64,000 nt of DNA from Steroidobacteraceae bacterium (GCA_035502275.1 DATJUN010000020.1:1821-65820), one strand, 5' to 3'; shown: positions 13,161 through 63,838, numbered from the stretch's first letter. Translations and numbers: made by a program. The notes: generated from the sequence alone by a model not told the origin.

Positions 13161-14687
13161 ATGAATGCTTCTGCCACCCAGCTCTCGAAGGTCCAGGCCA
13201 ACGCCGGCATCCGTTCGGACATCCGCCATCAGCTCTTCATCAACGGGCGCTTCGTCGATGCGCAGGACGGCCAGACGCTCACCACCGTCAATCCGCACGA
13301 CAACTCGCCGATCGCCGAGGTGGCCATGGCCGGGCGCGCCGATGTGGATCGCGCGGTCACGGCAGCGCAGTCCGCCCTGCCACGCTGGAGCCGACTGTCC
13401 CCGGCCGAGCGCGGGCGCATTCTGCTGAAGCTCGCCGATCGTATCGAGGCCAATCTCGAGGAGCTCGCGCGGCTGGAGTCGCTCGACACCGGGCATCCGC
13501 TGCGCGACTCGCGCGCGCTTGACGTGCCTCGCACCGCGGCCTGCTTCCGCTACTTCGGCGGCATCGCCGACAAGGTCGAGGGCTCGGTCATCCCGGTGGA
13601 CACCGGCTTTCTGAACTATGTGCTGCGCGAACCGCTGGGAGTCGTGGGCCAGGTCGTGCCGTGGAACTTCCCGATTCTCTTCACCAGCTGGAAGCTCGGC
13701 CCGGCGCTGGCAGCCGGCAACTGCGTGGTCATGAAGCCCGCGGAGATCACGCCGCTGACGTCGCTGAAGATCGCGGAGCTCGCCGCCGAGGCGGGCGTAC
13801 CCGAGGGCGTCGTCAACATGGTGCCCGGCCTCGGAGCCGTCGCCGGCCAGTACATCGCCGAGCATCCGGCGATCGCCAAGATCGCCTTTACCGGCTCCAC
13901 GGCCACGGGCAAGCGCATCGTTCAGGCCTCGGCGAGCAACCTCAAGAAGGTGCACCTGGAGCTCGGTGGCAAGGGTGCGAACATCGTCTTCGACGATGCC
14001 GACCTCGGTGCCGCCGTGAACGGCTCCGCCTTTGCGATCTTTCATAACCAGGGTCAGGCCTGCATCGCCGGAGCGCGGCTGATGCTGCACGAGCGCATCG
14101 CCGATGAGTTTCTGGAGCGCTTCACGGCACTGGCGCGCTCGATCCGCGTGGGCAATCCGCTCGACCCGGCGACCGAAATGGGCCCCCTCACCAGCGCGCA
14201 GCACCGCGATCGAGTCATGAGCTATGTCGCCACCGCCCGCGAGGAAGGCGGTCAGGTGCTGCTCGGCGGTCGCGCCCCGGAGGCTGCCGAGCTCTCGAAG
14301 GGCTTTTATCTCGAGCCCACCATCGTGCGGGCGCGCACGCACCGCGACCGCATCGCACAGGAGGAGGTATTTGGCCCCTTCGTCACCGTGCTGACCTTTG
14401 CCAACGACGAGGAGGCCCTGCGCATTGCCAACTCCACCGAGTACGGCCTCGGCAGCGGCCTGTGGACACGCGATATCTCCCGGGCGCATCGTTTCGCCCG
14501 CGAAATAAAGACGGGGATGGTCTGGGTGAACTGTTACAAACGCGTCCACCCTGCCTCTCCGTTCGGCGGCGTCGGTCAGTCCGGCTATGGTCGCGACATG
14601 GGCTTTGCAGCGATGGATGAATACACGCAGATGAAGTCCGTCTGGGTCAATGTGGACGCTGCGATGCCAGCCTGGTACCCGCGGTGA
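13161..14687 (+). CDS. NAD(P)-dependent aldehyde dehydrogenase (candidate 4-hydroxymuconic-semialdehyde dehydrogenase)
   Basis: ALDH family signatures: VVPWNFP, ELGGKG and FHNQGQACIAGARL with the catalytic Cys. Translationally coupled (GTGA) to the maleylacetate reductase. The substrate assignment is inference from that coupling. Confidence 0.85.
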   Translation: MNASATQLSKVQANAGIRSDIRHQLFINGRFVDAQDGQTLTTVNPHDNSPIAEVAMAGRADVDRAVTAAQSALPRWSRLSPAERGRILLKLADRIEANLEELARLESLDTGHPLRDSRALDVPRTAACFRYFGGIADKVEGSVIPVDTGFLNYVLREPLGVVGQVVPWNFPILFTSWKLGPALAAGNCVVMKPAEITPLTSLKIAELAAEAGVPEGVVNMVPGLGAVAGQYIAEHPAIAKIAFTGSTATGKRIVQASASNLKKVHLELGGKGANIVFDDADLGAAVNGSAFAIFHNQGQACIAGARLMLHERIADEFLERFTALARSIRVGNPLDPATEMGPLTSAQHRDRVMSYVATAREEGGQVLLGGRAPEAAELSKGFYLEPTIVRARTHRDRIAQEEVFGPFVTVLTFANDEEALRIANSTEYGLGSGLWTRDISRAHRFAREIKTGMVWVNCYKRVHPASPFGGVGQSGYGRDMGFAAMDEYTQMKSVWVNVDAAMPAWYPR

Positions 14688-15805
14688 GCGCCCTGCCCGC
14701 GTCTGCTGCCGCCCAGTCCGGCACGGCGGGCGCCGCCACCGCCGTGGTGCGCGAGTTCGTCTACAGCGCCCAGGCCGCCCGCGTGGTGTTCGGCGCCGGC
14801 GCGCTCGCCCGGCTGCCCGAGGAGATCGAGAGGCTTGGCGCCCGGCGCGCGCTGGTACTCGCCACGCCCGAACAGGCCGCCGATGCCGAGCGGCTCGCGC
14901 ACCAGCTCGGCGATCATGCGGCCGGTGTGTTCGCGCGCGCCGTCATGCACGTGCCCATCGAGACCGCGCGCGAGGCGCGCGAGGTGGCGCGCCGGCTGCA
15001 GGCCGACTGCGCGGTGGCGATCGGCGGAGGCTCGACCACGGGCCTCGGTAAGGCGATCGCCCTGGACTCGGGACTGCCGATTCTGGCCATCCCGACCACG
15101 TATGCCGGCTCGGAGATGACCTCGATCTATGGCCTCACCGAGGGCGGGGTCAAGCGCACCGGCAAGGATCCGCGGGTGTTGCCGCGCACCGTGATCTACG
15201 ACCCGACGCTCACGCTGACACTGCCGGTGGGACTGTCGATCACGAGCGGCCTGAACGCGATCGCCCACGCGGCCGAGGGGCTGTATGCCCGGGACGGCAA
15301 TCCCATCATGGACCTGATGGCCGAAGAGGGCATTCGCGCCATCGCCGCGGCGCTGCCGGGGATCCGGCGCGATCCGCAGGACCTGTCCGCGCGCGCGCTG
15401 GCGCTCTACGGCGCCTGGCTCTGCGGCACGGTGCTCGGGAATGTCGGCATGGCGCTGCACCACAAGCTCTGCCACACGCTCGGCGGCAGCTTCAATCTGC
15501 CGCATGCGCAAGTGCACACCGTGGTGCTGCCGCACGCCATTGCTTACAACGCCCCGGCCGCGCCCGAGGCGATGCACCGGCTCGCGCAGGCGCTGGGTGC
15601 CGAGCGCCCGGCCAGTGCGCTGTACGATCTGGCGCGCGGCAATGGCGCGCCTTATTCGCTGCGCGAGCTGGGCATGCCCGAGGGCGAGCTCGACCGCGCA
15701 GCGGACCTTGCAGTCGCCAATCCTTACTGGAATCCGCGCCCCATCGAGCGCGCCGCCATCCGCACGTTGCTGCAGCAGGCCTGGGAAGGCACCCGCCCCG
15801 CGTGA
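14684..15805 (+). CDS. Maleylacetate reductase (iron-containing alcohol dehydrogenase family)
   Basis: N-terminal FVYSAQAARVVFGAGALARLPEEIERLG pattern and GGGSTTGLGKAIA, typical of maleylacetate reductases. GTG start overlapping the ALDH stop. Confidence 0.8.
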   Translation: MSALPASAAAQSGTAGAATAVVREFVYSAQAARVVFGAGALARLPEEIERLGARRALVLATPEQAADAERLAHQLGDHAAGVFARAVMHVPIETAREAREVARRLQADCAVAIGGGSTTGLGKAIALDSGLPILAIPTTYAGSEMTSIYGLTEGGVKRTGKDPRVLPRTVIYDPTLTLTLPVGLSITSGLNAIAHAAEGLYARDGNPIMDLMAEEGIRAIAAALPGIRRDPQDLSARALALYGAWLCGTVLGNVGMALHHKLCHTLGGSFNLPHAQVHTVVLPHAIAYNAPAAPEAMHRLAQALGAERPASALYDLARGNGAPYSLRELGMPEGELDRAADLAVANPYWNPRPIERAAIRTLLQQAWEGTRPA

Positions 15806-16507: not shown

Positions 16508-16925
16508 GATCGGCCCGGTCATCGGGCGATGCCCGGGTGAGAATCGGCTGAAGCGTGACATGGCATACCCCGGGAAGCGGCACGGTGGGTCTTTCTCCAG
16601 GCAGCATAGCACCGCGACGCAGGCGGCCCCGACTATGTAAAGCGATCTTTGCATGGCGGCCGACCCCGTCATGGCGCGGCGCGGTGCTATGATTTGGCTC
16701 GCTGAAGGGTCTCACAAAATTGTTGAGTGTCCGGACATGGGGACGCGTATAGCTCCCATATCCGGGAGCTCGCCCAGCGGGCGAACCCGGCACCGCCTTG
16801 GGTTTGCGGTGGTAGGCAAGCCCGCGATGATGTTAATGTTAAAGGTCGAGTGACTGTTTCAAGGGCTGTCTTCCGCGGGAGATGGCCGCAATCAGAATAG
16901 GCGAGAGCAATTTCAGGAGAGGGGC

Positions 16926-17330
16926 ATGACGAGATTCAAAGCAGTATGTGCCGGCGCAGTGCTGGCGGGGGTGCTGGGTGCGGCGGCAAGCGTGCCGGCG
17001 CAGGCGCATCACTCCTTTCCGGCCACCTACATGGTCGACCAGACGGTCACGATCCAGGGTACGGTGGTGCAATTCCTGTTCCGCAATCCGCACTCCTTCG
17101 TACACGTGATGGCGCCAGACCCGAAGACGAAGCAGAACGTGGTCTGGGCGGTCGAGTGGGGCGCGGGCGGTGCACTGGGCGCCGACAGCGTCAAGCAGGA
17201 CACCCTGCGTCCGGGCGACAAGGTCGTCGTCACGGGCAATCCGGCACGTGATGCCACCTCGCACCGGCTGCGCATGCGGGCAATCACGCGTCCGTCTGAC
17301 GGCTGGAAGTGGTCCGGCACGTTCGGTTGA
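16926..17330 (+). CDS. DUF6152-like secreted protein
   Basis: Signal peptide ending AQA, followed by HHSFPATYMVDQTVTIQGTVVQFLFRNPHSFVHV. This is the AHHSF...GTV...NPH pattern I associate with DUF6152. A good RBS (AGGAGAGGGG) lies upstream. Confidence 0.65.
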   Translation: MTRFKAVCAGAVLAGVLGAAASVPAQAHHSFPATYMVDQTVTIQGTVVQFLFRNPHSFVHVMAPDPKTKQNVVWAVEWGAGGALGADSVKQDTLRPGDKVVVTGNPARDATSHRLRMRAITRPSDGWKWSGTFG

Positions 17331-44253: not shown

Positions 44254-46197
44254 ATGCTGCGTGCCTGCCCGAAGCGCGCGCCGTTGGCCGCGCGGGTATC
44301 GATCTTACCGTTAGTGCTGATTGGCCTGGCAATCCAGGCGACTGCAGCCACACCCAATCTCGCAGCGCTGCTGCGGCCGGGCGGTGTCCGCGCCGTACAG
44401 CTCTCGCCTTCAGGCTCGCGCGTCGCTGCCATCGTGCAAGGCGAGCAGAGCGACAGCGACCTGCTCGTGCTCGAAGAACGTCAGGGCAAGCTGACGACGT
44501 TGCTGTCGACCCACCTCGACAGTGCCGACGGCATTGCCGGGTACCGGTGGCTCTCAGACGATTACCTCGCGATCTACTACGCAGGTGATAACGACGAATT
44601 CGCACAGTTCGGGCTGCTCGACATTCCGCACCATGCGCTGCACGTGCAGGATCCCTTCACGCAGATCATCAAGGCTCCGTGGGGCGACGATACACACATG
44701 CTGCTGTCCGCAACGGGCGCAGCCAATTGCCGCAGCCACACCGTGGCGCGCTGCCTGCTGACGATGGACATTCGCTCGGGCAACAGCATTCGCTTCTCCG
44801 ATCCGTTCACCCAGGTACCGGTGAGCTTCCTGGCGGTTTCCACCAGCGAGATTTACGCGAGCGGACGCGACGGCGCCGGCCACGCGCATGACTATCAGCT
44901 CGATGTCTCCAGCCGCGAATGGAAACCAGTGGCCGACGGCACCCTGCAACGTCGGCAACAGGAACTGCAGGATGCGCCACCGCCGGCCGAAGTTCTGCAG
45001 CAGCAGACGCATGCGGCCATGCCCGCTGCCCTGCCCGTGTGGACCGAACCGGATCATCGCCTGGTCGGTCTGCTGGGGCTCGCCCCGCAGCGCGCCTTTC
45101 TTGCGCTGGATTCACGCCTTGATGGCGTGCAGGCACTGCTCGAGCAGAAATATCCCGAAGCGCGCGTGCAGATGAGCGGCCTCAATGCCGATCTGACGCG
45201 CGGCATGATCACGATCGCGGGTCCGGATCAGCCCCCGCTATACGTTTTTTTCACCGCGACCGGTTCGCTCACGCAATACGCCCAGCTCGAGCCTGACTTC
45301 AATCCCTCGGTGCTCGGACGCACGCACATGGAGCGTTCCTGGGTCGACGGTATGCCCGTCGCGATAACGCTGCCGCCACAAGGCATCACACCGGTCGGCG
45401 CCGTCATCGAACCCGTCATTGCCATGGCACCGCAGGCCGAGGAACCGCTGTCGCAGTACGACGGCCTGGTGCAGGCACTCTCGGAGAGTGGCCTGGTGGT
45501 CGTGCGACCCCTGATTGTCATTCCTTCCTCCTTTGACACACCTGCCGATGGGGGCGTGTGGCGGCAGCTACAGGGCGATCGGCTGCACATGCTCATGAGT
45601 CACGTGCGCGCAGCGCTCGTGCCCGGCAAAGCCGTGTGCCTGTACGGGGAGAATCTTGCGGGCACGCTGGCGCTGGCCTGGTCCGGCACGACCCGGGCTG
45701 ATTGCACCGTGACGGTCGGCGCACGACTCGATCCGGCAGCCTACACACATCCAATCATCATCATCCGCACCCAGCAGGGCGCACGTGCCATACGCCACGG
45801 TCGCATGTTCGTGCCCGCTCCGCCGGGCCAGGTGACCATGAGGGCCAGCGATCAGCAGCTGCATCGCGACCTGCCCGCGCAATTCGCAGTTGCAGGCACC
45901 GGTCAGCTCGTCGAGCCGACACACTGGGCGGCGCAGCTGCCGACAAGGCTGATGCTCGCCTATGATATGCAACTGCGCGCGCAGCAGGAGTTCGCGAGCG
46001 AATCGGGGGCATTTCGCCGGGCGGCCCAGCGCGCCGGGCGGCAGGTCGACTTCTACGCCAGTGAGAGCGTGGCTATCGACGACATCCAGTCGCGCGACCG
46101 GATGCTGCAGGCGGTCATCGATTACCTGCACCGGGCCATGATGACGCTACCAGCTGCCGCGACGGCAAGCACAGCCGGTGCGGCCCGTTCGCCCTGA
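44254..46197 (+). CDS. Secreted S9-peptidase-like protein without a visible nucleophile (paralog 2)
   Basis: Colinear with 38339-40243. Shared blocks: LSPSG.R.AA, GY.WL.D.YL, D.PHHA.H, KAPWGD..H.LLS.TG, RCLLT, SEIYASGRD.AG, GPDQPP.Y, LGRTH.ER.W..G.PV..TLPP.G. The elbow position reads CLYGENLAGTLALAWSG. Confidence 0.6.
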   Translation: MLRACPKRAPLAARVSILPLVLIGLAIQATAATPNLAALLRPGGVRAVQLSPSGSRVAAIVQGEQSDSDLLVLEERQGKLTTLLSTHLDSADGIAGYRWLSDDYLAIYYAGDNDEFAQFGLLDIPHHALHVQDPFTQIIKAPWGDDTHMLLSATGAANCRSHTVARCLLTMDIRSGNSIRFSDPFTQVPVSFLAVSTSEIYASGRDGAGHAHDYQLDVSSREWKPVADGTLQRRQQELQDAPPPAEVLQQQTHAAMPAALPVWTEPDHRLVGLLGLAPQRAFLALDSRLDGVQALLEQKYPEARVQMSGLNADLTRGMITIAGPDQPPLYVFFTATGSLTQYAQLEPDFNPSVLGRTHMERSWVDGMPVAITLPPQGITPVGAVIEPVIAMAPQAEEPLSQYDGLVQALSESGLVVVRPLIVIPSSFDTPADGGVWRQLQGDRLHMLMSHVRAALVPGKAVCLYGENLAGTLALAWSGTTRADCTVTVGARLDPAAYTHPIIIIRTQQGARAIRHGRMFVPAPPGQVTMRASDQQLHRDLPAQFAVAGTGQLVEPTHWAAQLPTRLMLAYDMQLRAQQEFASESGAFRRAAQRAGRQVDFYASESVAIDDIQSRDRMLQAVIDYLHRAMMTLPAAATASTAGAARSP

Positions 46198-46236: not shown

Positions 46237-48207
46237 TCACTGCGCGGCGAACGCCAGCACCACATTGCCCGAGTGGGCGACTCCTGATTGTCCGACGGAG
46301 TATCCGGAGCCTACGAACAGCATTCCGCCGACGACGGTGACGCCCTGCGAGCCCATCGCGCCACCGTGGGCTGGAACGTGATTCACCGTATCGAACGAGC
46401 GGTCCGTCTGATAGCTCCAGAGCACGTGTCCATCGCGGCTGGAAGCCGCCACGATGCTGCCGTCGGAGCCGCCGAGAAAAATGACTCCCGGGATCGCGGT
46501 CGCGGGCGAATCATAGCCAACACGCTGTTCCCCCGAATCGGTATGGATCGGGACCTGCCAAAGCCGCATGCCATCGGCAATGTGGATCGCGGCCAGGCCG
46601 CCGCCGACCTTCAGGCCGTAGTAGACGTTCCCGTCATCGACCGCCCCTCCCCACTGGATGCCGGTCTGGCGGAAGGCGGCGGGGCCGAAGGGCAGCCGCT
46701 GGGCCAGCTTGCCGGTCACGTTGGTGCGCCAGACGAGCCTGCCATCGTGATCCGGGTCGAAGGCGAGCACATCGCCGGGCTTGGTAGCCACCACGATCAG
46801 GCGATGGCCGTCGGGCAGGCGGTAGAGAATGGGCGATGCCGGCACATCCCAGTCCGGCCCCTCCGTTTGCGGACAGTTGTCGGTCGCACTGTCTCCGTAG
46901 CAGCCGCCGAGAAAGGCATCACCGCTGGTGATCTGATAGTGCCAGAGCATGTGCCCGTCCTTCATGGACAGCGCCATGACGGAATCGGACGTCGGCGCGG
47001 CCGGATCCGTGGTCGCATCGCCGGTACCGAAATAGATGGCCTGCCGTACCGGATCGACCACTGGCGTGTTCCACACCGAGCCGCCGGCGGGCGCGTACTG
47101 CTGCACGCCCTTGGAGTTGCGACGGGTCGGCTTCGGTCGCTGCGGGATCACATAGGTGTTCCACAGGATCCTGCCGGTATGGGCATCCAGCGCCACGATC
47201 TCGCCAACCGACGTGCAGCACGGATAGTCGAGCGACGCCGCCGAGAACTCCTCCCAGGAGGAGATTGGCACGTACAGTTTGCCGGCGTAGTAGGCCGGCG
47301 GCGCCGTGACCCGATCGGTGTACTGCTGCTCCACATGCGTGGACCACAGCTGCCGACCGGTGCGCGCATCGAGCGCATAGACATTGGCCTTCAGATCGCC
47401 GAACAGCGCGACATCGCGCTGCCGTCCCTTCACCGCGATGCGCTCGACGCGCAGCGCATTGCGCACGCCGGCCTGGGCGAGAAAGGACCAGTAGATGCAG
47501 CCGCTGCGCGCATCCATCGAGTACACGTAGCCAGTATCGGTGCCGACGAAGACACGGCCGGAGACCACCACCGGCTCGCTGTAGGCCGAGGTGGAATTGG
47601 GCAGGCCAAAGGCCCACTTCAATTTGAGGCGTGGCAGATCCTCGGTCGTCAGCCCCGCCGCGGCGCGTGGCTGAAAGCGCGTGTTGTCCCGATTATTTCC
47701 CCAGCCATTCCAGGAAGGACCGGCCGAGGGCGCACGCAGCGCCGGATCGGCGGCGCAGTGATCGGCCATATTCTTGTAGTCACCCTGCGGAGAGGTGCCG
47801 AGCAATCGGCCAGCCACCGCCTGTGCGACCAGGCGCCGCTGCTGATCGGTCAACTTATCGCCGACGGCTTTCATCACCCCGGAGCTGAGCGCCGTGTAGA
47901 TGCGCTCGGGCGAGTAGGTTCGCAGCACCGCTGGCAACGGGGCCTGCTTGACGTTCGGGTTTCCGTGGCAGGACAGACAGGTGTTCTGGAAAATGGCGAA
48001 TCCCTGCTCCGTGCCCGCGGTGAGCCCCTTGTCGGGCGCAGGGGCCGGCGGCGGGGCAGCAGATCTCTGCGCCGCCGCGGGTGCCTGGGCCCACACCGCA
48101 AGCGTCCCAGCGAAGCTGAGCAGTGCGCACAGCGCGATGGTGCGCGCAGCCCCCAAGGCCGATGCATTCGCTGCACCGGCCGCCAAGCCGTACCTTTCGA
48201 TCCGCAT
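46237..48207 (-). CDS. Quinohemoprotein dehydrogenase (cytochrome c plus PQQ propeller, PVA-dehydrogenase-like), copy 2
   Basis: Colinear with 25479-27350 and roughly 60 percent identical by eye, including CLSCHG and YSPERI..ALSSG..AVG.KL.D.Q.RLVAQAVAGRLLG. Trimmed to the ATG at 48207. Confidence 0.75.
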   Translation of the reverse strand: MRIERYGLAAGAANASALGAARTIALCALLSFAGTLAVWAQAPAAAQRSAAPPPAPAPDKGLTAGTEQGFAIFQNTCLSCHGNPNVKQAPLPAVLRTYSPERIYTALSSGVMKAVGDKLTDQQRRLVAQAVAGRLLGTSPQGDYKNMADHCAADPALRAPSAGPSWNGWGNNRDNTRFQPRAAAGLTTEDLPRLKLKWAFGLPNSTSAYSEPVVVSGRVFVGTDTGYVYSMDARSGCIYWSFLAQAGVRNALRVERIAVKGRQRDVALFGDLKANVYALDARTGRQLWSTHVEQQYTDRVTAPPAYYAGKLYVPISSWEEFSAASLDYPCCTSVGEIVALDAHTGRILWNTYVIPQRPKPTRRNSKGVQQYAPAGGSVWNTPVVDPVRQAIYFGTGDATTDPAAPTSDSVMALSMKDGHMLWHYQITSGDAFLGGCYGDSATDNCPQTEGPDWDVPASPILYRLPDGHRLIVVATKPGDVLAFDPDHDGRLVWRTNVTGKLAQRLPFGPAAFRQTGIQWGGAVDDGNVYYGLKVGGGLAAIHIADGMRLWQVPIHTDSGEQRVGYDSPATAIPGVIFLGGSDGSIVAASSRDGHVLWSYQTDRSFDTVNHVPAHGGAMGSQGVTVVGGMLFVGSGYSVGQSGVAHSGNVVLAFAAQ

Positions 48208-48366
48208 AAGGCCCCCGAAGTGTGGAATGGGCGCGCTGTCGAGCGATGCGTCCCCTGCGCCGGCGGGACGCTCAGAACGCGCCAGCGCAACCATATCGCT
48301 TCGATATCTGAGCGGTCAATGGACCACGGCGCACCGAGCTCGTGCGCGTGGCGTAAAATCGCGTGG

Positions 48367-49827
48367 ATGCGCCTGCTCTACATCGACATCGATACGTTGC
48401 GGTTCGATCATCTGGGCTGCTACGGCTACCCGCGCAACACCACCCCACACATCGACCGCCTGGCGGCGCAGGCCATCGTCTTCGACCGGATCTACGCCTC
48501 CGACACGCCGTGCCTGCCGAGCCGTACGGCGCTGCTCACCGGGCAATTCGGCATGCGTAACGGCGTCGTCAATCACGGCGGGACCGACGCCGACCCGGCG
48601 ATGGAGGGCGCGACACGCGGATTCCATACCCATCTGATGATGGACTCGTTTCCAAACAGGCTGAAGCGTGCCGGCCTGCGCACCGTGACGGTGAGCTCCT
48701 TCGCGTTCCGTCATTCAGCCTTCCACTGGTATGCAGGCTTCGATGAAGCCTACAACGTCGGCAAATACGGCATGGAAACGGCGGAGGAAGTGTATGCGGT
48801 CGCCGCCGAGTGGCTGCAGCGGCGCGGCGGCTCGGACAACTGGTTCCTGCACGTTCATCTTTGGGACCCGCATGGGCCCTATCGGGCGGCCGCCGCCTAC
48901 GGAGAGCCGTTCTCCGATCAGCCACACCCGACGTGGCTTACGGAGCAGATTCGCGCCAGCCACTGGCGCGGCTGCGGCCCACACAGCGCGCAGGAGGGAC
49001 GCGGCTTTCATCCCAACGAATACGACCGTGCCCACTATCCGCGTCAGCCGCAGGAGATCTTCGACATGGCCGCGGTGCGCGCCATGTTCGACGGCTACGA
49101 CACCGGCGTGATGGTCGCGGATCTGTACGCCGGACGGTTGTTTCGCCTGCTCGAGGAGCTCGGTATCTCGGACGATACGGCCGTGATGATCTCCTCCGAT
49201 CACGGCGAGACGCTGGGCGAGCTGAACATCTACTGTGATCACCACACCGCCGATGAATACACGACGCACGTGCCGTTGATCCTGAAGTGGCCCGGACTCG
49301 GCGCCGGCCGCCACGCGGGGATGCACTATCAGATCGATGTCAGCGCCACCCTGCTCGAGCTGCTCGGCCAGGAAGTGCCGGACAGCTGGGACGGACAATC
49401 CTTTGCGACGGGCCTGAAGACGCGCAGCGACGGCGGCCGCGATCATCTGGTGCTGTCACAGGGGGCCTGGACCTGTCAGCGTGGCGTGCGCTTCGAGGAT
49501 TGGATGCTCATCAGTACGCTGCACGATGGCTATCATCTGTTCGACGAAGTCATGCTGTTCGATCTCGAGCACGATCCCTTCGAGCAGCGCAATCTGGCGG
49601 ACAGCCGACCTGAAGTGGTCGCGCGCGGCCTCACGCTGCTGTCGCACTGGCATGCGCGCATGCTGCCGCACGCCGCGCGCGGACGCGATCCGCTCGAGCA
49701 CGTGGTGCGCGAGGGCGGCCCCTTTCATGTGCGTGGCGAGCTGCCCGCGTATCTGCAGCGCCTGCGCGCGACAGGACGCGCCGATCAGGCGGCGCTGCTG
49801 GCGGCGAGGTATCCCTCGCTCGCTTGA
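48367..49827 (+). CDS. Cys-type sulfatase (alkaline-phosphatase superfamily), no signal peptide
   Basis: LLYIDIDTLRFDHLGCYGY and the sulfatase signature TPCLPSRTALLTGQ (CxPxR formylglycine motif). An alternative start is at 48319. The upstream 690 aa of the 1179-aa track ORF is antisense to the PQQ gene and is rejected. Confidence 0.8.
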   Translation: MRLLYIDIDTLRFDHLGCYGYPRNTTPHIDRLAAQAIVFDRIYASDTPCLPSRTALLTGQFGMRNGVVNHGGTDADPAMEGATRGFHTHLMMDSFPNRLKRAGLRTVTVSSFAFRHSAFHWYAGFDEAYNVGKYGMETAEEVYAVAAEWLQRRGGSDNWFLHVHLWDPHGPYRAAAAYGEPFSDQPHPTWLTEQIRASHWRGCGPHSAQEGRGFHPNEYDRAHYPRQPQEIFDMAAVRAMFDGYDTGVMVADLYAGRLFRLLEELGISDDTAVMISSDHGETLGELNIYCDHHTADEYTTHVPLILKWPGLGAGRHAGMHYQIDVSATLLELLGQEVPDSWDGQSFATGLKTRSDGGRDHLVLSQGAWTCQRGVRFEDWMLISTLHDGYHLFDEVMLFDLEHDPFEQRNLADSRPEVVARGLTLLSHWHARMLPHAARGRDPLEHVVREGGPFHVRGELPAYLQRLRATGRADQAALLAARYPSLA

Positions 49828-53492: not shown

Positions 53493-56087
53493 ATGAAGAT
53501 TCGTCCAACTATCCACGTTCCCTTGGCGCTCGCACTGGTGGGTGCGACGCTCTTATCGATTGGGACCGCGGTGGCACAGAACCAGACAGACCAGCCCGCC
53601 AATCAAGGCGCCGCTCCAGCTGCCGCGGACCAGGGCACCTCGGCCGCGGCGGGGCAAGGCGGCGCTACGGAACTGCAGGAAGTGGTGGTCACCGCCGAGC
53701 GTCGCGCCACCGACGTGCAGAGCACGCCGATTGCAGTCACCGCGGTGTCGGGGGATCAGCTGCAAACGCTGCACCTGAACAACATCAGCGATCTGCAGAC
53801 GACGGTGCCGAGCTTTCAGAGCAACGACGAGGCCGGATTCTTCAACAGCATCAACATCCGCGGTATTGGCAACTCGGCCATTACGCCCATCATCGCCACC
53901 GGTGTGGCCGTGTTTCGCGATGGACTGCTGATGTCGGAGACGATCGCCGAAGACGAGCCGATGTTCGACATCGCCGATACGGAGGTTCTGGAAGGGCCGC
54001 AGGGCACCTTCGTGGGCGCCAGCTCGACGGCAGGCGCCGTGGAAATCAATTCGGCCAACCCGACCTTCACCGGTGTCAATGGCTACATTCAGGGTGACCT
54101 CGGTAATTACTCCGACACCAAGTTCCAGGGCGCCGTCAACCTGCCGGTCACCGACACCTTCGCGGCACGCTTTGCCTTCAACAGTGAGCAGCGCAACAGC
54201 TTCTACAACGACGTGGGAGCGACCCAGAACGGGTTCTACTATCCAGCCTATCCGGGAGTTGCCGGCAGCCAGCTGCCGCTCATCCAGGCCAGTCCGGGCC
54301 AGAGTCTTCCCATCATCGACCCGGGCCATGAAAATGATCGCGAGATGCGCCTGAGCCTGCTGTGGAAACCGAGTGATCGCTTCCAGGCATTGGGCAAGAT
54401 CGAATACAGCGACATCAATACCGGTGGTGAGCCGGGCGAACCCAATCCGGATACCTACAACACCCTCTTCAGCGCTGGTTCTGGCCCCGGCTATGCCGGA
54501 TGCACGCTCGCCCCCGGGACAGGGTTCACGGGCAACCAGCTCAGCTGCGCCGCGCCAGGCACAGCGGTGCATTCACAGTACTACTACCCGGGCGAGAAGC
54601 CGTTCGTTCTCGACTACTACGGCACCGGTCAGCAGGAAGACGAATTGCTGACGCACTATGGGCTGGATCTGCGTTATACGCTGCCCGACGGCATCCAGAT
54701 CCGCTCGCTCAGCGGCTTCGTGCACATCTATATCAATCACCAGGACAACAACAGCTACGCTCCGTGGAATGCGGGCTGGACCTATCATGAGATCGGGCCG
54801 AACGACGACTATATGAGCCAGGAGGTCGATATCATCTCGCCGACCACCGGCAAAACCAGCTGGATCGCCGGGGCGTTCTGGAACTATCGCGACACGCCCG
54901 TATTCCTCGATATCGACAGCGTCACCGCACCCTACCAGCCCAACCAGCTGCCGTCGGTTCTGGTAACGACGGCCGTGCCGAGTACCAATCGCATCGCGGC
55001 GGTGTTCGGACAGTTCAACTGGCAATTCACCGATACCCTGCAGCTGCAGATCGGCGCCCGCGAGAACTGGGACAATAACTTCTCGACGCAGAGCACCGGC
55101 GAGGCCCCGGCGGCCGGGACCACGGTCCCGGCGCCTTCCGGCACGGGCGTGTATCTCATCCATTACACCGGCACCTCTCCGACCGGCTATACCGTCCTGT
55201 CGCGTTCGCTTGCTTCGGGACGATTCGAGGACAACGTCCCGACCGGCAAGATCGACCTCAACTGGACCCCGGCGCCCGGCCAGAACTTCTATCTGTTCTA
55301 TGCCCGCGGCTACAAGGCGGGCGGCAACAATTCCAGCTCAACAGATCACCCACTCTTCAGTCACGAGACCGTCAATGACTATGAGATCGGCTGGAAGGGA
55401 CGCCTGCTCGACGGTCACATGCAAACCCAGGTGGGCGGGTACTACTATAACTATCAGAACATGCAGTACTCGCTGTTCGATCCACAGCAGAACGGCGACA
55501 CCTCCACCGGCACCTACGTGGCCAACCTGGCGCCCTCGACCATCTATGGCATCGAAGTCTCGGAACAGGCCCGGTTCAGCGGCCTTGGGGTGAATATCGG
55601 CTTTGACTACAATCACAGCGCGCTCGGCGCTGTCACGACGCTGCCCAACTACGCGTTGCCCGCCGGCTTTGGCAGCCCCACGACGTTACCGCAGTGTCTG
55701 CCCGGGCACACCTATGCCACCGGCACTGCCTGCTTCAACTACAACCCCTACCTGGTCAACGTCAGTGGTGAGGAGAATCCGTTCGCACCGCAGATTACCT
55801 TCAACATCTCGGTCGATTATCAGTTTCACGTCGGCAACGGGACGATCGACCCGCGGGTGACCTTCTCGCATACGGATCAGCAGTACGCGTCGATCTTCCA
55901 GGTCCCCTACAACCTCATGCAGGCCCGTAATCTGTGGAGCGCAAGCGCCGACTGGGTGGTCGGCAAGTGGGACACACAGCTGTACGGCACCAACCTGAGC
56001 AACGAGACCTACATCATCGCCGGCGGCAATCCGCTCTACTACGGAGCACCGCGGCAATTGGGCCTGCAGGAGACCTTCCACTTCTGA
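53493..56087 (+). CDS. TonB-dependent outer-membrane receptor
   Basis: Signal peptide, the plug motif ELQEVVVTAERRATDVQSTPIAVTAVSG, a long beta-barrel with aromatic-rich strands, and a C-terminal ..LQETFHF ending in Phe. Confidence 0.9.
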   Translation: MKIRPTIHVPLALALVGATLLSIGTAVAQNQTDQPANQGAAPAAADQGTSAAAGQGGATELQEVVVTAERRATDVQSTPIAVTAVSGDQLQTLHLNNISDLQTTVPSFQSNDEAGFFNSINIRGIGNSAITPIIATGVAVFRDGLLMSETIAEDEPMFDIADTEVLEGPQGTFVGASSTAGAVEINSANPTFTGVNGYIQGDLGNYSDTKFQGAVNLPVTDTFAARFAFNSEQRNSFYNDVGATQNGFYYPAYPGVAGSQLPLIQASPGQSLPIIDPGHENDREMRLSLLWKPSDRFQALGKIEYSDINTGGEPGEPNPDTYNTLFSAGSGPGYAGCTLAPGTGFTGNQLSCAAPGTAVHSQYYYPGEKPFVLDYYGTGQQEDELLTHYGLDLRYTLPDGIQIRSLSGFVHIYINHQDNNSYAPWNAGWTYHEIGPNDDYMSQEVDIISPTTGKTSWIAGAFWNYRDTPVFLDIDSVTAPYQPNQLPSVLVTTAVPSTNRIAAVFGQFNWQFTDTLQLQIGARENWDNNFSTQSTGEAPAAGTTVPAPSGTGVYLIHYTGTSPTGYTVLSRSLASGRFEDNVPTGKIDLNWTPAPGQNFYLFYARGYKAGGNNSSSTDHPLFSHETVNDYEIGWKGRLLDGHMQTQVGGYYYNYQNMQYSLFDPQQNGDTSTGTYVANLAPSTIYGIEVSEQARFSGLGVNIGFDYNHSALGAVTTLPNYALPAGFGSPTTLPQCLPGHTYATGTACFNYNPYLVNVSGEENPFAPQITFNISVDYQFHVGNGTIDPRVTFSHTDQQYASIFQVPYNLMQARNLWSASADWVVGKWDTQLYGTNLSNETYIIAGGNPLYYGAPRQLGLQETFHF

Positions 56088-56102: not shown

Positions 56103-56132
56103 GGGGCCCGACGGCGCGCGCTGTCGGGCCCC
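56103..56132. terminator. Bidirectional Rho-independent-like terminator between the convergent receptor and pcaDC genes
   Basis: 10-bp GC stem GGGGCCCGAC / GTCGGGCCCC with a 10-nt loop, followed by TTGTCTATT on the plus strand. Confidence 0.6.
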
Positions 56133-56187: not shown

Positions 56188-57450
56188 TCACGGCTCAGCG
56201 CGCGCGGCGCGCAGTTCGGCCAGGATCTCGCCGGCGTGGGCAAAGGCAGTATTGGCGGCTGGCACACCGGCGTACACCGCCGACTGCATCAGCACCTCGC
56301 GCAGTTCCTCTTCGCTGAAGCCGCCGGGGGCAAGCCCCGCGCGCACATGCAGACGAAATTCCTCCCACCGCCCGAGCGCGATGGTCGTTGCCAGCACCAA
56401 CAGCCGCCGTGTACGCCGGTCCAGCCCCGGACGGCTCCAGATCTCCTGCCACGCGCTGCGCGTGATCATCTCCTGAAAGTCGCTGTTGAACAGCGTGCGC
56501 GTGGCCAGCGAGCGATCCACCCAGGCATCCCCGAGCACTTCGCGCCGGATGCCGAGGCCGGCCTCGTAAAGGGTTGCGGCGGCAGCCTGAAGGCGCTGGT
56601 CCTGCGCAGCCACGCCACGCGGATCTGCCGCCGCTGCAGGCGGCGCATCCGCCGTGCTGTCCGTCCACGCCACTGACTTCAGAAACTCGCATACCGCCGA
56701 GGCAAAAGGCCCGGGCGCCTCCAGGCAGGCCAGATGCCCTGCCTCGAGAGCGACGTGGCGGGCATTGGGGAGAGCGGCCAGGAGCCGGGCACCATGCGGC
56801 TCGAAGGGCGCGTCGACGTCCTTCGTCCCGGAGAGCAGCAACACCGGTTGCTGCACCGAGCTCAGCTGCTGCGCCAGGGCCATGTCGCGGATCGCCGCCG
56901 CGCCCCCGGCATAGCCGCGTGGATCGATCAGTCGCAGCGCCGTGCGCATGCTGTCGATGACCTGCGGATTCGCGTGCGCAAAGTCATCGCTGAAGGAACG
57001 CGCGATCGCAGGCGCCAGCACCGGCGCCATGCCCTGCGCACGCACCCGTTGCGCGCGCTCTGCCCAGTCGGCCGTGCTCACCTGCGCGCTGCTGCAGGCG
57101 CAGATCACTGCGCGCACGCGCGCTGGCGCCCGCAGGCCCAGCGTGAGAGCAACCGCGCCGCCGAGTCCCATTCCGCACACCGCTGACTGCTGCGTCGATG
57201 AGGCATCCAGTACGGTCCGTGCATCGTCGGCCAGATCCTCCAGCCGATAATCGCCGGGCGGGGCGTCGGAGGCACCGTGCCCCCGGCCGTCCATACGCAA
57301 TACCCGAAAGTGCGGCAGCAGCCCCGGCACCACGCGATCCCACAGCGACAGATCCGCGCCGAGGGAATTCAGCAGCAGCACGACGGGATGGCCATCGGTG
57401 CCCTCCAGCCGCCAGTAGAGGCGTACTCCGGCGTTAGTCGTGAACGGCAT
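56188..57450 (-). CDS. pcaL: Fused 3-oxoadipate enol-lactonase / 4-carboxymuconolactone decarboxylase (PcaL-type PcaD-PcaC fusion)
   Basis: N-terminal alpha/beta hydrolase (VVLLLNSLGADLSLWD, nucleophile elbow VCGMGLGG in place of the usual GxSxG) joined by an Ala-rich linker to a C-terminal CMD domain (LDRRTRRLLVLATTIALGRWEEF..HVRAG). Trimmed to the ATG at 57450. 17-nt overlap with pcaB. Confidence 0.8.
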   Translation of the reverse strand: MPFTTNAGVRLYWRLEGTDGHPVVLLLNSLGADLSLWDRVVPGLLPHFRVLRMDGRGHGASDAPPGDYRLEDLADDARTVLDASSTQQSAVCGMGLGGAVALTLGLRAPARVRAVICACSSAQVSTADWAERAQRVRAQGMAPVLAPAIARSFSDDFAHANPQVIDSMRTALRLIDPRGYAGGAAAIRDMALAQQLSSVQQPVLLLSGTKDVDAPFEPHGARLLAALPNARHVALEAGHLACLEAPGPFASAVCEFLKSVAWTDSTADAPPAAAADPRGVAAQDQRLQAAAATLYEAGLGIRREVLGDAWVDRSLATRTLFNSDFQEMITRSAWQEIWSRPGLDRRTRRLLVLATTIALGRWEEFRLHVRAGLAPGGFSEEELREVLMQSAVYAGVPAANTAFAHAGEILAELRAARAEP

Positions 57451-58624
57451 GGATGTGCGGTTCGGCGCTGTCCTTGCATTGCCTTCGATAGTGATCGAGG
57501 CAGCGGCCGACCAGCTGGATGGACAGGCCGATGTCGTCCCCGACGCCGCTGGCGGCGAGGTTCGCAGCCATGGCGACCGTATCGACCTCCAGCGCCTCGA
57601 CCACGACACGCATGGCCTGCAAGGCCCCGTGCGTCAGCTCGAATAGCGTGGCCAGCGCGGGAGCCTCCGCCTGCCAGCCGCCGAGACCGCGCTGATGCTC
57701 CTGGGGTAGCCCCGCCAGAATTCCCGCCGCCAGCCCCGGGGCTCGGATCGCCGCGGACAGTGCGATCTGGCAGCCGGTGGGATTGCGTTTGTGGGACATG
57801 CTGGAGGAGCCGCCGCGTCCGCTGATGCGCGGCTCGAAGGCTTCGTGCACTTCGTGCTGCGCAAGCAGCGAGATATCGCGCGCGAGCTTGCCCGTGGCGC
57901 CCGAGACAACGGCGAGTGCGCCGGCGAGCCCCGCCACGCCATCACGGCGCGCAGTCCACGGCAGAACCGGGGCCGCGAGCCCGAGCTCAGCGGCCATTCG
58001 CTCGAGCACTTCCAGCGACAGCCCCTGCAGCGTGCCGGCCGCACCTGCGAGCTGTAGCAACAGCGCCGCGCGGCACTCCCACGCGAAGCGCTGCAATGCC
58101 TGGTGGATGCCCAGCAGCCACTGCGACGCCTGCAATCCAAACGTCGTCGGTAACGCTGGCTGCAGCAGCGTGCGCGCCAGCGCGGGCGTACGTGCGTGGC
58201 TCTCGGCCACTCTCGCGAGCGCATCGGTCAACGCGCGTCCCTCGCGCTGGATCAGATGTGCGCCGGCCTTTGCCTGCAGCATCAGCGCGGTGTCGGCCAG
58301 GTCCTGGCTGCTCGCCCCCCGATGCAGCAGCCGCGCAGCCTCCGCGTCCTGCTCGGCGATGCGCGCACGCAGCCGTGGCAGCAGCGCCAGAGCGAGGGTG
58401 CCGGCATGCGCGGCTTCCTCGGCCAGCGTGGCCACCTCGAAACGGGCGCTGTCGCAGACCGCACCGATGGCGGCGGCAGCCGATTCCGGAATCAGCTTCG
58501 CAGCGGCCTGCGCGCGTGCCAGCGACGCCTCGAAGGTGAGTGCAGCCTGCAGCAGCGCCTCATCGCCGAAGACTGCCAGCATCTCAGACGAGGAGGCGGG
58601 ACGGTCACGCAGCAGAGCGGCCAA
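57434..58624 (-). CDS. pcaB: 3-carboxy-cis,cis-muconate cycloisomerase
   Basis: Fumarate-lyase superfamily signature GGSSSMSHKRNP. Position between pcaG and pcaDC. Confidence 0.8.
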   Translation of the reverse strand: MAALLRDRPASSSEMLAVFGDEALLQAALTFEASLARAQAAAKLIPESAAAAIGAVCDSARFEVATLAEEAAHAGTLALALLPRLRARIAEQDAEAARLLHRGASSQDLADTALMLQAKAGAHLIQREGRALTDALARVAESHARTPALARTLLQPALPTTFGLQASQWLLGIHQALQRFAWECRAALLLQLAGAAGTLQGLSLEVLERMAAELGLAAPVLPWTARRDGVAGLAGALAVVSGATGKLARDISLLAQHEVHEAFEPRISGRGGSSSMSHKRNPTGCQIALSAAIRAPGLAAGILAGLPQEHQRGLGGWQAEAPALATLFELTHGALQAMRVVVEALEVDTVAMAANLAASGVGDDIGLSIQLVGRCLDHYRRQCKDSAEPHIHAVHD

Positions 58625-60897: not shown

Positions 60898-62013
60898 ATG
60901 GGAGCACCACGCGCACGCGCGCATATCGCACCCGGGCATAAGGCCGGATCAGCCCATCGGCCTGGCGTTTACTTTCTCTTCGCTCTGCTGACTGGCAGCT
61001 GGCCCGTGCTGGCATCGGCGGCAGCGCCGGCGGCGGCCCTGCCCGCACCCGCCGGGTCGGCCCAGGCCGTAGAAGTGATGCAGCTGAAGCCGGACTTCTA
61101 CATGCTCTCGGTAGATGGCATGCATCTTGGCCTCGAAACCGGCGAAGACGGCGCGATCCTGGTCGACACCGGCCCGGCGGGCGCCGCGAGCGCAGTGGTG
61201 CGCCAGATCAAGCGGCTGTCGGACCAACCGCTGCGCTTCATCATCGACACCAGTGCGGATCCCGACCTCATCGGGGGAAACGCGATTCTATCCGCTGCTG
61301 GCCAGTCCCTGATGATCGGCTTCGCGGTGCTGACGCGATACGCGAATGATCCCAACGCGATTCCTGCCGAGCACATTCTCGACGTGCGGGCCCCGATCAT
61401 TGCCCGTCAGAGCGTTACCGAACAGATGCTGAGCGCGTCCGGCACAGCGCCTTCCCCATTGCAGCTACCCAGCGAAGTATTCACTCGCCCGCAATACGTC
61501 TTTCGCCTCAATGGCCAGATCGTCCGCGTGGTACGCATGCCGAACGCACATACCAGTGCCGACAGCGTGGTGCGCTTCGACGGTTCCGACGTCGTCGTCA
61601 CAGGCGCGATCTTCGATGTCACCCACTTTCCGGTAATCGATCTGCAGCACGGCGGCAGCATCCAGGGCGAGATCGACGCGCTGAACCAGCTGATCGGTAC
61701 GCTGGTGGTGGCGTCGGGGCCGATCGTCACCGATTCGGATGGCACGTTGGTCGTTCCACTGCGCGGGCATGTGTGCAATCAACCGGACCTGGTCAGCTAT
61801 CGCGACATGCTTGCATCGATCCGCGATGGCGTGGCCCGTCTCATCGACAAGGGCGACCGTCTGGCGGCGGTCGAGGCGGCGAACCCCGCCATGGGCTATG
61901 AGACGCGCTACGGATCCGGCACTGATGCCTGGACGACGCATGACTTCATCGCAGCCGTTTATGCCAGCCTGATGGCGCAAAGACACCCGCCCCAGCGCGG
62001 CGGTGGCCAGTGA
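60898..62013 (+). CDS. MBL-fold protein with a strongly degenerate metal-binding motif (module 2, first gene)
   Basis: Colinear with 50770-51990 (ILVDTG ... LRFIIDTSADPDLIGGN ... PNAHTSADSVV ... VVVTGAIF ... VVPLRGH). Start placed at the ATG at 60898, preceded by a GAGGCGAGGGGG RBS. Confidence 0.6.
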   Translation: MGAPRARAHIAPGHKAGSAHRPGVYFLFALLTGSWPVLASAAAPAAALPAPAGSAQAVEVMQLKPDFYMLSVDGMHLGLETGEDGAILVDTGPAGAASAVVRQIKRLSDQPLRFIIDTSADPDLIGGNAILSAAGQSLMIGFAVLTRYANDPNAIPAEHILDVRAPIIARQSVTEQMLSASGTAPSPLQLPSEVFTRPQYVFRLNGQIVRVVRMPNAHTSADSVVRFDGSDVVVTGAIFDVTHFPVIDLQHGGSIQGEIDALNQLIGTLVVASGPIVTDSDGTLVVPLRGHVCNQPDLVSYRDMLASIRDGVARLIDKGDRLAAVEAANPAMGYETRYGSGTDAWTTHDFIAAVYASLMAQRHPPQRGGGQ

Positions 62014-62801
62014 ACCGCGTTGTCGGCTTCGCGGCGATCGCGGTCCTCTGGGCTGCCTCCGCGTCGCTCCTGTGGGCGCAGCCGGTGGACAGATCGGGGC
62101 AGTCGCAGGCCGCGAGTGCCGAGACCCAGGCGCCGGTGGATCTGACTGGCTATTGGGTCTCGATTGTGGGATCGAACGGCTGGCTGTTTCGCATGGTGGT
62201 CCCGCAACGCGGCCAATACGCCGGCATCCCCATCAATGGCCGTGCGCGTGCCTTCGCCGATGCATGGAGCGCGGCGGCCGACGAGGCCGCCCACAAGCAG
62301 TGCGAAGCCTACGGCGCGGCCGCGATCATGCAGATACCCGAGCGGCTGCATGTGAGCTGGCAAGACCCGCAGACGCTGCAGATTCAGACCGACGCCGGCA
62401 TGCAATCGCGACTGCTGCGGTTCCAGCCCACGCAGGCGCAGCGTATGGCAGCGCCGAGCCGGCAGGGCAACTCCGTGGCCCAATGGATGCTCTATCGCCC
62501 CGGCGGGGCGGGCCGTGACAGCGGCGCCCCTCGCTACGGCTGGCTGCAGGTGATTACCACCCACATGCTACCCGGGCTGCTGCGCAAGAATGGCGTGCCT
62601 TACAGCGCTCAGGCTTCCATGACAGAAAGCTGGCAGTACATCAGCGTACCGGACGGCGAGCAGCTGCTGACATTGACGACGACGTTGACCGATCCGGTGT
62701 ATCTGGCGGCACCGTACCTCTTCAACTCGGTATTCCAGAAGCAGCGCGATGACTCGGGCTGGATGCCCAGTCCCTGCTCGCTGGAGGAGCTATCCCAATG
62801 A
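62010..62801 (+). CDS. Exported hypothetical protein, family X, short form (module 2, second gene)
   Basis: GTG start overlapping the upstream stop (GTGA). Signal peptide ..SLLWAQ. Motifs DLTGYWVS, GQYAGIPIN, C.AYGAAA, LRKNGVPYS, DPVYLAAPY and PSPC. Confidence 0.65.
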   Translation: MNRVVGFAAIAVLWAASASLLWAQPVDRSGQSQAASAETQAPVDLTGYWVSIVGSNGWLFRMVVPQRGQYAGIPINGRARAFADAWSAAADEAAHKQCEAYGAAAIMQIPERLHVSWQDPQTLQIQTDAGMQSRLLRFQPTQAQRMAAPSRQGNSVAQWMLYRPGGAGRDSGAPRYGWLQVITTHMLPGLLRKNGVPYSAQASMTESWQYISVPDGEQLLTLTTTLTDPVYLAAPYLFNSVFQKQRDDSGWMPSPCSLEELSQ

Positions 62802-63838
62802 TCCCCCGGACGAAGCTGCCGGCAGCGCTGCTCGCGAATTCGCTTGGTCTCGCGCTGCTGCTGTACGCGGGCCGAGCCCGCGCTCAGGTCGATCTGTCGG
62901 GCAACTGGCAACCGGCGGAACCGCCGTTCGCCCAGTTGATTGCTACCGGCCCACCGCCGGGCGATTTTCTGGGTATTCCACTCAATCGGGAAGGTCGGGC
63001 GCTGGCCGCGAGCGCCAACCCCGATGGGACTCTGGAGGAGCTGGGCCATCAATGCCAGGAGTGGCTGACGACGTTCTTCGGCGGTGGCGTATTCGGCGTT
63101 GAGATCCGCCCCATCGGTGATCGGCTCAACGGCGCTCACATCGTGGCCTGGCACCTGAGCGGCGTGACGGACCGGCCCGAGCAGACGATCTGGATCGACG
63201 GCCGCAGCCCCCCCTCATCGAGCGCGCTGCACACGTGGGGTGGCTTCGCCATCGGCCACTGGGAGGGCAACACCCTGGCCGTTTCGATCTCGAACATCTC
63301 CGATGGGTGGATGACGCACAACTTCGCACCGGAGAGTGATCAGGCGACCGTGGATATGTTTTTGAGCCGTCAGAATAATCTCCTGGTCGTGACCTACATC
63401 ATCCATGACCCGATCTACCTGTCGGCTCCCTTCATCAGGGCCGACACGTACCGGCTATCGGAGGCCAGTCCCAGCTACGGCATTGGGACCGTGAACGATT
63501 GCCTGCCTGCCGAAAGCCTTCCCGGACTCAATGACCGTAATCGGGCCGCTCCAGCCATGCTGCCGGCCAACAACCCTGCGCTCAACTTCATGATGAATCA
63601 CTATGGAATTCCATCGCAGATCGCGCTCGGGGGAGCGGAGCAGATGTATCCGGATTTCCAGCGGCAGCTCGGCAGGCTCTACCGTGTGCCCAAGGGCTAT
63701 TGCGTTCAATACTGCTGCTTCGCGCAGGGTGCCTTTCGGGGTGATCAATGTCCGGCTCCGGCTCCGGCGACACCACCCGCCGGCGCCGCGGCATCCGCCG
63801 GCGGTGACGACCTCCCGGCGGCAGGAACACGCCCTTGA
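62798..63838 (+). CDS. Exported hypothetical protein, family X, long form (module 2, third gene)
   Basis: ATGA overlap with the upstream gene. Signal peptide ..YAGRARAQ. Motifs DLSGNWQP, GDFLGIPLN, HQCQEW, GHWEGNTLAV, DPIYLSAPF and NDC. Has a Cys-rich, Pro/Ala-rich C-terminal tail. Confidence 0.65.
   Translation: MIPRTKLPAALLANSLGLALLLYAGRARAQVDLSGNWQPAEPPFAQLIATGPPPGDFLGIPLNREGRALAASANPDGTLEELGHQCQEWLTTFFGGGVFGVEIRPIGDRLNGAHIVAWHLSGVTDRPEQTIWIDGRSPPSSSALHTWGGFAIGHWEGNTLAVSISNISDGWMTHNFAPESDQATVDMFLSRQNNLLVVTYIIHDPIYLSAPFIRADTYRLSEASPSYGIGTVNDCLPAESLPGLNDRNRAAPAMLPANNPALNFMMNHYGIPSQIALGGAEQMYPDFQRQLGRLYRVPKGYCVQYCCFAQGAFRGDQCPAPAPATPPAGAAASAGGDDLPAAGTRP

Follow-up and report, generated by a model that had tools for sequence, protein, structure and literature searches.

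A conserved three-protein module, present as two ancient lineages in one Steroidobacteraceae contig, links a metallo-beta-lactamase-fold protein to two families of predicted beta-barrels

Three adjoining plus-strand genes lie at positions 60898-63838 of a 64,000-nucleotide stretch of a Steroidobacteraceae metagenome-assembled genome (MAG; GCA_035502275.1, DATJUN010000020.1:1821-65820), which is called the window throughout and in which positions are counted from the first letter. Our results reveal that these genes make up one full copy, coupled in translation, of a conserved module whose products are a metallo-beta-lactamase (MBL)-fold protein and two proteins of unnamed families, short X and long X. 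A further copy lies in the same window on the opposite strand (module 1, as against module 2 at 60898-63838), and, judged by their sequence relationships, the two are ancient lineages that stand side by side and not the outcome of a local duplication. The module is itself a very large unnamed family, of which the window samples two deep branches, so that 60898-63838 is more than the "second copy" as which an initial annotation of the sequence had presented it.

Two coupled copies of one module

The genes of the two modules are as follows.

60898-62013, plus strand: module 2 MBL-fold gene, 371 aa, HTT04182
62010-62801, plus strand: module 2 short X gene, 263 aa, HTT04183
62798-63838, plus strand: module 2 long X gene, 346 aa, HTT04184
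51987-52910, minus strand: module 1 long X gene, 307 aa, HTT04175
50770-51990, minus strand: module 1 MBL-fold gene, 406 aa, HTT04174
49878-50768, minus strand: module 1 short X gene, 296 aa

The NCBI calls on the MAG agree with the three module 2 open reading frames (ORFs), each of which (HTT04182-HTT04184) is there named "hypothetical protein", and the coordinates in the initial annotation match them. The translational coupling that it described can likewise be read at both junctions: MBL and short X overlap by GTGA (62010-62013), short X and long X overlap by ATGA (62798-62801), and a Shine-Dalgarno-like GAGGGGG precedes the ATG of the MBL gene. In module 1, long X and MBL share a 4-bp ATGA overlap, while MBL and short X are set apart by a 1-nt spacer (TGAtATG). 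The Cys-rich tail that had been noticed on the module 2 long X protein, CVQYCCFAQGAFRGDQC, was located at 63701-63751 on the plus strand (C302 to C318), followed by a Pro/Ala tail to 63835; its motif, GYCxxxC(C)...C, is found again in most members of the closest long-X subclade.

Counterparts in the two modules were compared by BLASTP with compositional adjustment, which returned 32% identity for MBL (E 3e-39), 35% for short X (E 2e-59) and 27% for long X (E 8e-28), in agreement with the earlier proposal that both modules draw on the same three families. Because these composition-adjusted E-values hold, the similarity reflects true homology. A tblastn search of the window found no copy beyond modules 1 and 2; further copies in the same MAG lie on other contigs (VMF64_03820 and VMF64_05490). 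The permuted gene order was confirmed, module 2 running MBL, short X, long X (Msl, with M, s and l for the three genes) and module 1 running long X, MBL, short X (lMs). Of the layout proposed for them, the distance of about 8 kb holds (7,988 bp), but the copies do not face inward: module 1 occupies the minus strand and module 2 the plus strand, and as the 5' ends of both point toward the center, the modules are divergent and transcribed outward.

The copies are ancient lineages that co-diverged

To place the two copies within the family, 57 complete modules were used to build pairwise-distance matrices of the three protein families. These matrices were strongly correlated with one another (r = 0.84, 0.90 and 0.83; Mantel p = 0.001), although such a mirror-tree correlation partly reflects shared species phylogeny. 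Incongruent family trees, the expected mark of independent assembly, were not seen; rather, the same subclades appear in all three neighbor-joining trees, which are simple trees without support values, and the gene order switches several times inside these subclades.

A nearest-neighbor test, which is independent of the inflation caused by shared species history, gave the same picture. The closest relatives of each window protein belong to the same foreign modules: for module 1, these are the lM module L003_18771 (55-63% identity) and lMs and lM modules of Acidobacteriota (45-49%), and for module 2, they are Msl and slM modules of Steroidobacteraceae (40-58%). Modules 1 and 2 are 27-38% identical to each other in this comparison, and for each of the three proteins, the paralogue in the other module comes only 77th-91st in closeness among the 81-91 family members. 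As each copy is thus among the most distant relatives of the other, the pair appears to represent ancient lineages lying side by side. The initial annotation had inferred an old duplication at 25-40% identity, of which the homology and the great age stand, while a local duplication does not.

These comparisons also bear on the possibility that the paralogy has no functional meaning, being produced by composition bias or by a segmental repeat of recent and local origin. The setting invites such a reading, given that the G+C content around both modules is 63-70% and that the proteins are Ala- and Pro-rich. It is refuted, however, by the composition-adjusted E-values of the counterparts (8e-28 to 2e-59), which show homology and not a GC or Ala/Pro bias, by conserved motifs and invariant Cys residues common to hundreds of homologues, and by the position of the window copies among the most divergent pairs in the family.

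One cyclic gene order in two phyla

The module is widespread. Homologues of short X form more than 7,194 clusters at 90% identity, all unnamed and all free of Pfam domains; those of long X come to 1,034 representatives at 50% identity (E<=1e-3); and a scan of one genome per GTDB species gave at least 595 genomic stretches with module matches. The gene-order counts that follow were made on the best 80 of these at least 595 loci, in which all ORFs were searched with profile hidden Markov models (HMMs) of the three families. Nearly all 80 are from soil MAGs, labeled Acidobacteriota (Bryobacterales, Vicinamibacterales, Terriglobia and Acidiferrales) or Steroidobacteraceae/Gammaproteobacteria.

All 76 complete trios in these loci, spanning two phyla, keep the cyclic order MBL>short>long (Msl 40, lMs 31, slM 5), and none of the 76 has any of the three non-cyclic orders. 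The same rule governs same-strand adjacent pairs, where M>s (71), s>l (51) and l>M (42) are set against a single M>l and no l>s or s>M. Both window modules satisfy the cycle, each with the three families on one strand at tight spacing. Gene fusion follows it as well: among long-X homologues of at least 520 aa, 21 of 22 carry long X and then a module-type MBL on one polypeptide, mirroring the l>M adjacency, and a Pfam scan found Lactamase_B on 19 of 123 long-X representatives. The suggestion that the three partners work together, first made from their joint retention in the window, is strengthened by the order kept in 76 of 76 trios, by the long X-MBL fusions and by the overlapping start and stop codons.

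Several loci hold tandem arrays (L001, slM|Msl; L005, slMsll; L079, slMs). The rotated orders probably arose from such arrays trimmed at different points, which is the simplest route from one rotation to another.

The X proteins are predicted calycin-like barrels of one superfamily

An hhalign comparison shows that short X and long X share a common origin (probability 99.8%, E 1.8e-28). Neither has a Pfam or NCBIfam match at E<=0.1, no PDB entry was matched in sequence or profile searches, whether the query was short X, long X or a 123-sequence profile, and the Pfam scan of the 123 diverse long-X representatives found only the fused Lactamase_B, with no family covering the X domain. In AlphaFold2 models (predicted local distance difference test, pLDDT, 83.7 for short X and 69.9 for long X), both share a predicted plan of strand 1, a helical insertion and eight more strands, nine in series; in long X, these are followed by a C-terminal helical extension and tails. 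The best Foldseek matches in the PDB were avidins for short X and CRBP, FABP, SAHS and avidins for long X, all of them weak (E 7e-3 to ~1e-2; target-normalized TM 0.4-0.58) and none significant.

On these models, the X proteins are predicted to be calycin-like beta-barrels. They resemble the calycins (lipocalins, FABP/CRBP and avidins) in that they are modeled as antiparallel strand meanders, with small-ligand binders as their best matches. They differ from them in sharing no sequence similarity with any Pfam, NCBIfam or PDB entry, in being about twice as large, and in having helices inserted behind strand 1, a putative disulfide and the C-terminal helical extension of long X. Each X family has exactly one invariant Cys pair, at 98/256 in short X and 86/235 in long X of module 2, and at 98/290 and 84/228, respectively, in module 1. 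All six window proteins have signal-peptide-like N-termini (by eye from the sequence), which, together with the Cys pairs of the X proteins, fit periplasmic export. The window X proteins show no sign of a lipoprotein signal, their signal-peptide-like N-termini not being followed by a Cys.

A third, more distant X-like family (~267 aa, no Pfam match, long-X HMM 26-69 bits) repeatedly stands beside DUF6152 genes in loci of Acidobacteriota and Gammaproteobacteria, and the same core is found in two larger proteins, so that the X superfamily appears broader than the two module families. Its loci are listed here.

L032, 17114-18463: third X-like family
L047, 12601-13815: third X-like family
L066, 18176-19466: third X-like family
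L012, 5994-7207: third X-like family
L012, 16944-18023: same core in a 360-aa protein
L003, 1005-2741: same core in a 579-aa protein

In the 611-aa long-X homologue P0364, a tannase/feruloyl-esterase fragment (PF07519, E 1.3e-9) lies N-terminal to the X domain; it may point to aromatic-ester substrates, or may be a chimera created in assembly or gene calling.

An MBL fold with a patchwork metal site

The label "MBL-like" that the remaining protein of the trio had been given needs qualifying, as both window copies are without the HxHxDH motif. Of the six window proteins, these two alone resemble a known family. Pfam Lactamase_B (PF00753) scores 32.8 bits on the module 1 MBL, above the cutoff of 22.7, and 20.8 bits on that of module 2, below it, although the two proteins are homologous (E 3e-39), and the family profile reaches PDB MBLs at E 4e-13 to 1e-3, aligning with MBL profiles over motifs 1-4. 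The best of these and nearest solved relative by profile, 8d2z (E 4e-13), is an uncharacterized "MBL superfamily protein". Relative to the MBL superfamily, the module proteins are set apart by a conserved C-terminal helical extension and by their obligatory linkage or fusion to X barrels.

Among named subfamilies, the best NCBIfam matches of the window MBLs are the SoxH-related models TIGR04559 (41.8 and 50.0 bits) and TIGR04558 (21.6 and 35.9 bits), both with cutoffs of 280-300, and the class B beta-lactamase models (B1, B2 and B3), on which they score 14-35 bits against cutoffs of 100-240. A beta-lactamase identity was rejected, given the scores and the motifs. The SoxH-related metallohydrolases are the best-scoring named subfamily, and the window also has a pyrroloquinoline quinone (PQQ) dehydrogenase gene nearby, but at 22-50 bits the match is far under the cutoffs and a PQQ neighbor is infrequent across loci; membership in a SoxH/PQQ "quinoprotein relay" was rejected on both counts.

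The two window copies differ in the zinc ligands that they have lost. In module 2, TSADPDL replaces HxHxDH, H196 is kept, D221 is changed to Ala and H263 to Arg, and site 2 is gone; with H116, H118 (now Asp) and H121 lost as well, D120 and H196 are the only canonical ligands left. In module 1, TDGLPDH replaces the motif, H196 is changed to Thr, D221 and H263 are kept, and site 1 is gone. Across 67 module MBLs, the full HxHxDH (H116, H118, D120, H121) occurs in only about 8-10 and the commonest form is [DN]T[SN]xDxDH, while single ligands are kept more often (H121 in 47/67, H196 and D221 each in 56/67, H263 in 55/67), and some family members retain the full set of HxHxDH with H196, D221 and H263. 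The module 2 ligand pattern is common to its Steroidobacteraceae-type relatives (L001, L004, L005, L011, L003_4918 and L008_18032), and the long X-MBL fusion proteins show a variability in the metal site like that of the separate MBLs. The residues present in the module 2 MBL suggest that it is more likely a non-catalytic or altered-metal scaffold.

Receptor, catabolic genes and other neighbors

The features between and around the modules in the window include the following.

53493-56087, plus strand: TonB-dependent receptor gene (NCBI name), divergent from module 1 across 583 bp
56103-56132, plus strand: strong terminator-like hairpin with a 13-bp stem, 3' of the receptor gene and before the pca operon
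16890-17327, plus strand: DUF6152 gene (PF19649, E 3e-21), 33 kb from the modules and the only copy in the window
46237-48294, minus strand: PQQ-type beta-propeller dehydrogenase gene, beyond the module 1 3' end, with a CxxCH (CLSCH) heme-binding motif near the N-terminus of its product
~48400-49827, plus strand: type I (aryl)sulfatase-family gene, immediately beyond the module 1 3' end
44254-46197, plus strand: 647-aa ORF upstream of the PQQ dehydrogenase gene, with no Pfam match at E<=1e-3

The receptor gene, whose plug and barrel Pfam domains were seen on the identical 864-aa product in the near-identical contig L083, lies 4.9 kb from module 2. The pcaDC, pcaB, pcaG and pcaH genes also stand between the modules, on the minus strand, together with a PRC-barrel gene. 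The longest pcaDC ORF (56188-57609, minus strand) overlaps pcaB (57434-58624, minus strand) by 176 nt; L083 gives a 420-aa pcaDC product, and the true start is thus probably downstream of the first GTG.

Of 87 modules across the loci, 32 have a TonB-dependent receptor gene within 7 kb, and for 19 of these the distance is no more than 1.6 kb. Proteins 35-41% identical to the window receptor are encoded beside or between modules in three Steroidobacteraceae loci (L003, L008 and L057), and in L003, such a homologue lies between the closest relatives of modules 1 and 2. Genes that point to aromatic catabolism also occur near modules: the window has pcaHG, pcaB and pcaDC, L001 has LigAB and C1-THF genes, HpaB and flavin reductase genes stand in six related loci, and in L083 a bicupin gene lies downstream of module 2. 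This arrangement recalls receptor-centered loci, such as those resembling polysaccharide utilization loci (PULs) or those of sphingomonad aromatic uptake, in which a receptor adjoins exported accessory proteins and catabolic genes. It differs from PUL-like loci in that no SusD-like lipoprotein or glycoside hydrolase Pfam families were found among the module neighbors, in that the accessory proteins are of undescribed families, and in that the receptor is absent near most modules.

The most frequent fourth partner is DUF6152, with 52 genes in 35 of about 80 loci, mostly directly upstream of short X. These encode small exported-type proteins (~130-155 aa), many with an AHH ending to a signal-peptide-like N-terminus, for which no PDB relative was found. 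Examples are given below.

L009, 9457-9852: DUF6152 gene
L023, 7400-7780: DUF6152 gene
L046, 9384-9782: DUF6152 gene
L069, 7020-7394: DUF6152 gene
L056, 9475-9876: DUF6152 gene

In L040, L053 and L067, DUF6152>short X occurs as a pair of its own, the same-strand run containing neither MBL nor long X. In the window, the neighbors of the DUF6152 gene encode an aldehyde dehydrogenase, an iron-containing alcohol dehydrogenase, a TetR regulator and an oxidoreductase of the old yellow enzyme type. In L083, at 13184-15401, just past the point that corresponds to the window end, the genes downstream of module 2 are two of the DUF6644 family (169 and 172 aa) and one for a 349-aa Cupin_2 bicupin; DUF6644 matched 4 of the 105 module-flanking ORFs scanned in other loci.

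The PQQ dehydrogenase and sulfatase-family genes beyond module 1 score well below the NCBIfam equivalog cutoffs. A sulfatase link of the module was considered and dropped, as none appeared among the recurrent neighbor clusters or in the neighbor Pfam scan elsewhere. Similarly, the recurrent 530-690-aa ORFs near Steroidobacteraceae modules were rejected as a shared partner, being mutually unrelated.

Proposed function and alternative explanations

We propose, at roughly even confidence, that the trio is a periplasmic complex that binds, and in some lineages hydrolyzes, a small hydrophobic or aromatic compound. In this model, the three proteins would assemble in the periplasm, where the barrels would catch the compound, delivered in many loci by a neighboring TonB-dependent receptor, and hand it to the MBL subunit. 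The latter would hydrolyze it in lineages with an intact metal site and would serve as a scaffold where the site has been lost, as in module 2, and the products would then enter cytoplasmic catabolism, in the window by way of the protocatechuate branch.

SdsA1-type alkyl sulfatases (PDB 2cfu) offer a working analogy. Enzymes of this type combine an MBL catalytic domain with an SCP2-like hydrophobic-ligand domain, and the long X-MBL fusions likewise join an MBL hydrolase to what would be a hydrophobic-substrate domain. The profile match to 2cfu is weak (E 4e-5) and confined to the N-terminal MBL part, however, and the module has no SCP2 or dimerization domain, a different metal motif, and a ligand partner that is a beta-barrel, N-terminal or separately encoded, in two paralogues. 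Membership of the module in the SdsA1 type is therefore not supported.

Several observations weigh against the proposed function. A TonB-dependent receptor is missing within 7 kb of 55 of the 87 modules, and Acidobacteriota and Steroidobacteraceae are rich in such receptors, so any enrichment over background is probably modest. A consistent neighborhood of aromatic catabolism was not borne out, with such genes in no more than about 8 of the 80 loci, and is at most a lead; the remaining module neighbors are heterogeneous. The Foldseek matches of the barrels are weak, so the calycin assignment is a prediction, and hydrolysis by module 2 is made less likely by its missing metal ligands.

The main alternative is that the module handles metals or metallophores in the periplasm, as a metallochaperone or in metal release, downstream of a TonB-dependent receptor. 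Under this explanation, metal would be bound at the variable MBL site, by the His-His N-terminus of DUF6152 and by the Cys-rich tail, and several patterns are compatible with it: the presence of DUF6152 in 35 of about 80 loci, many with the AHH motif; the shift of the MBL ligand set between lineages; the recurrence of the Cys-rich tail in the long-X subclade of module 2; the receptor association; and an HbpS-like heme-degrading protein adjoining the modules in L001. Yet the X barrels lack a conserved His, Met or Cys cluster apart from the one Cys pair, no ABC importer, siderophore biosynthesis gene or reductase recurs beside modules, the recurring contexts are catabolic, and no DUF6152 gene adjoins the window modules, the sole copy being 33 kb away. 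We regard metal handling as unlikely. A slightly more remote alternative is that the MBL acts by itself as a periplasmic hydrolase (a lactonase, or an enzyme of beta-lactamase-like or SoxH type), with the X genes as co-transcribed passengers. The identity of its best NCBIfam matches, its profile matches to PDB MBLs, the PQQ dehydrogenase gene near module 1 and the PQQ dehydrogenases that adjoin modules in about five loci would suit such an enzyme. The scores, however, are all far under the cutoffs (42-50 bits against 280-300, and 27-35 bits against 100-240), HxHxDH is missing from both window copies, and the long X-MBL fusions, the strict gene order, the overlapping stop and start codons and the co-divergence of the three families are at odds with X proteins that merely travel along.

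Significance

Literature searches on the module, DUF6152, 8D2Z, TonB and lignin in Steroidobacteraceae, and MBLs with lipocalins and TonB found nothing relevant. Acidobacteriota are a dominant soil phylum, and both they and the Steroidobacteraceae are known mostly from uncultured soil MAGs. Taken as a whole, and with rather less confidence than the binding function itself, we suggest that Acidobacteriota and Steroidobacteraceae could possess a periplasmic machine not described before, made of the trio and, in many cases, DUF6152 and a TonB-dependent receptor, and drawn from two unnamed families, that captures and processes a class of hydrophobic or aromatic compounds from soil organic matter; its MBL would repeatedly have become a pseudo-enzyme, and its gene orders would record tandem duplication and trimming.

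A module that crosses phyla, occurs in multiple copies, is often fused and often lies next to a receptor probably marks a common route of nutrient acquisition or processing in soil that is invisible to current annotation. Defining the family would give names to thousands of "hypothetical proteins" and provide a concrete biochemical target. Further, the one-cycle order rule and the patchwork loss of MBL ligands offer clean cases for the study of operon evolution and of the emergence of pseudo-enzymes.

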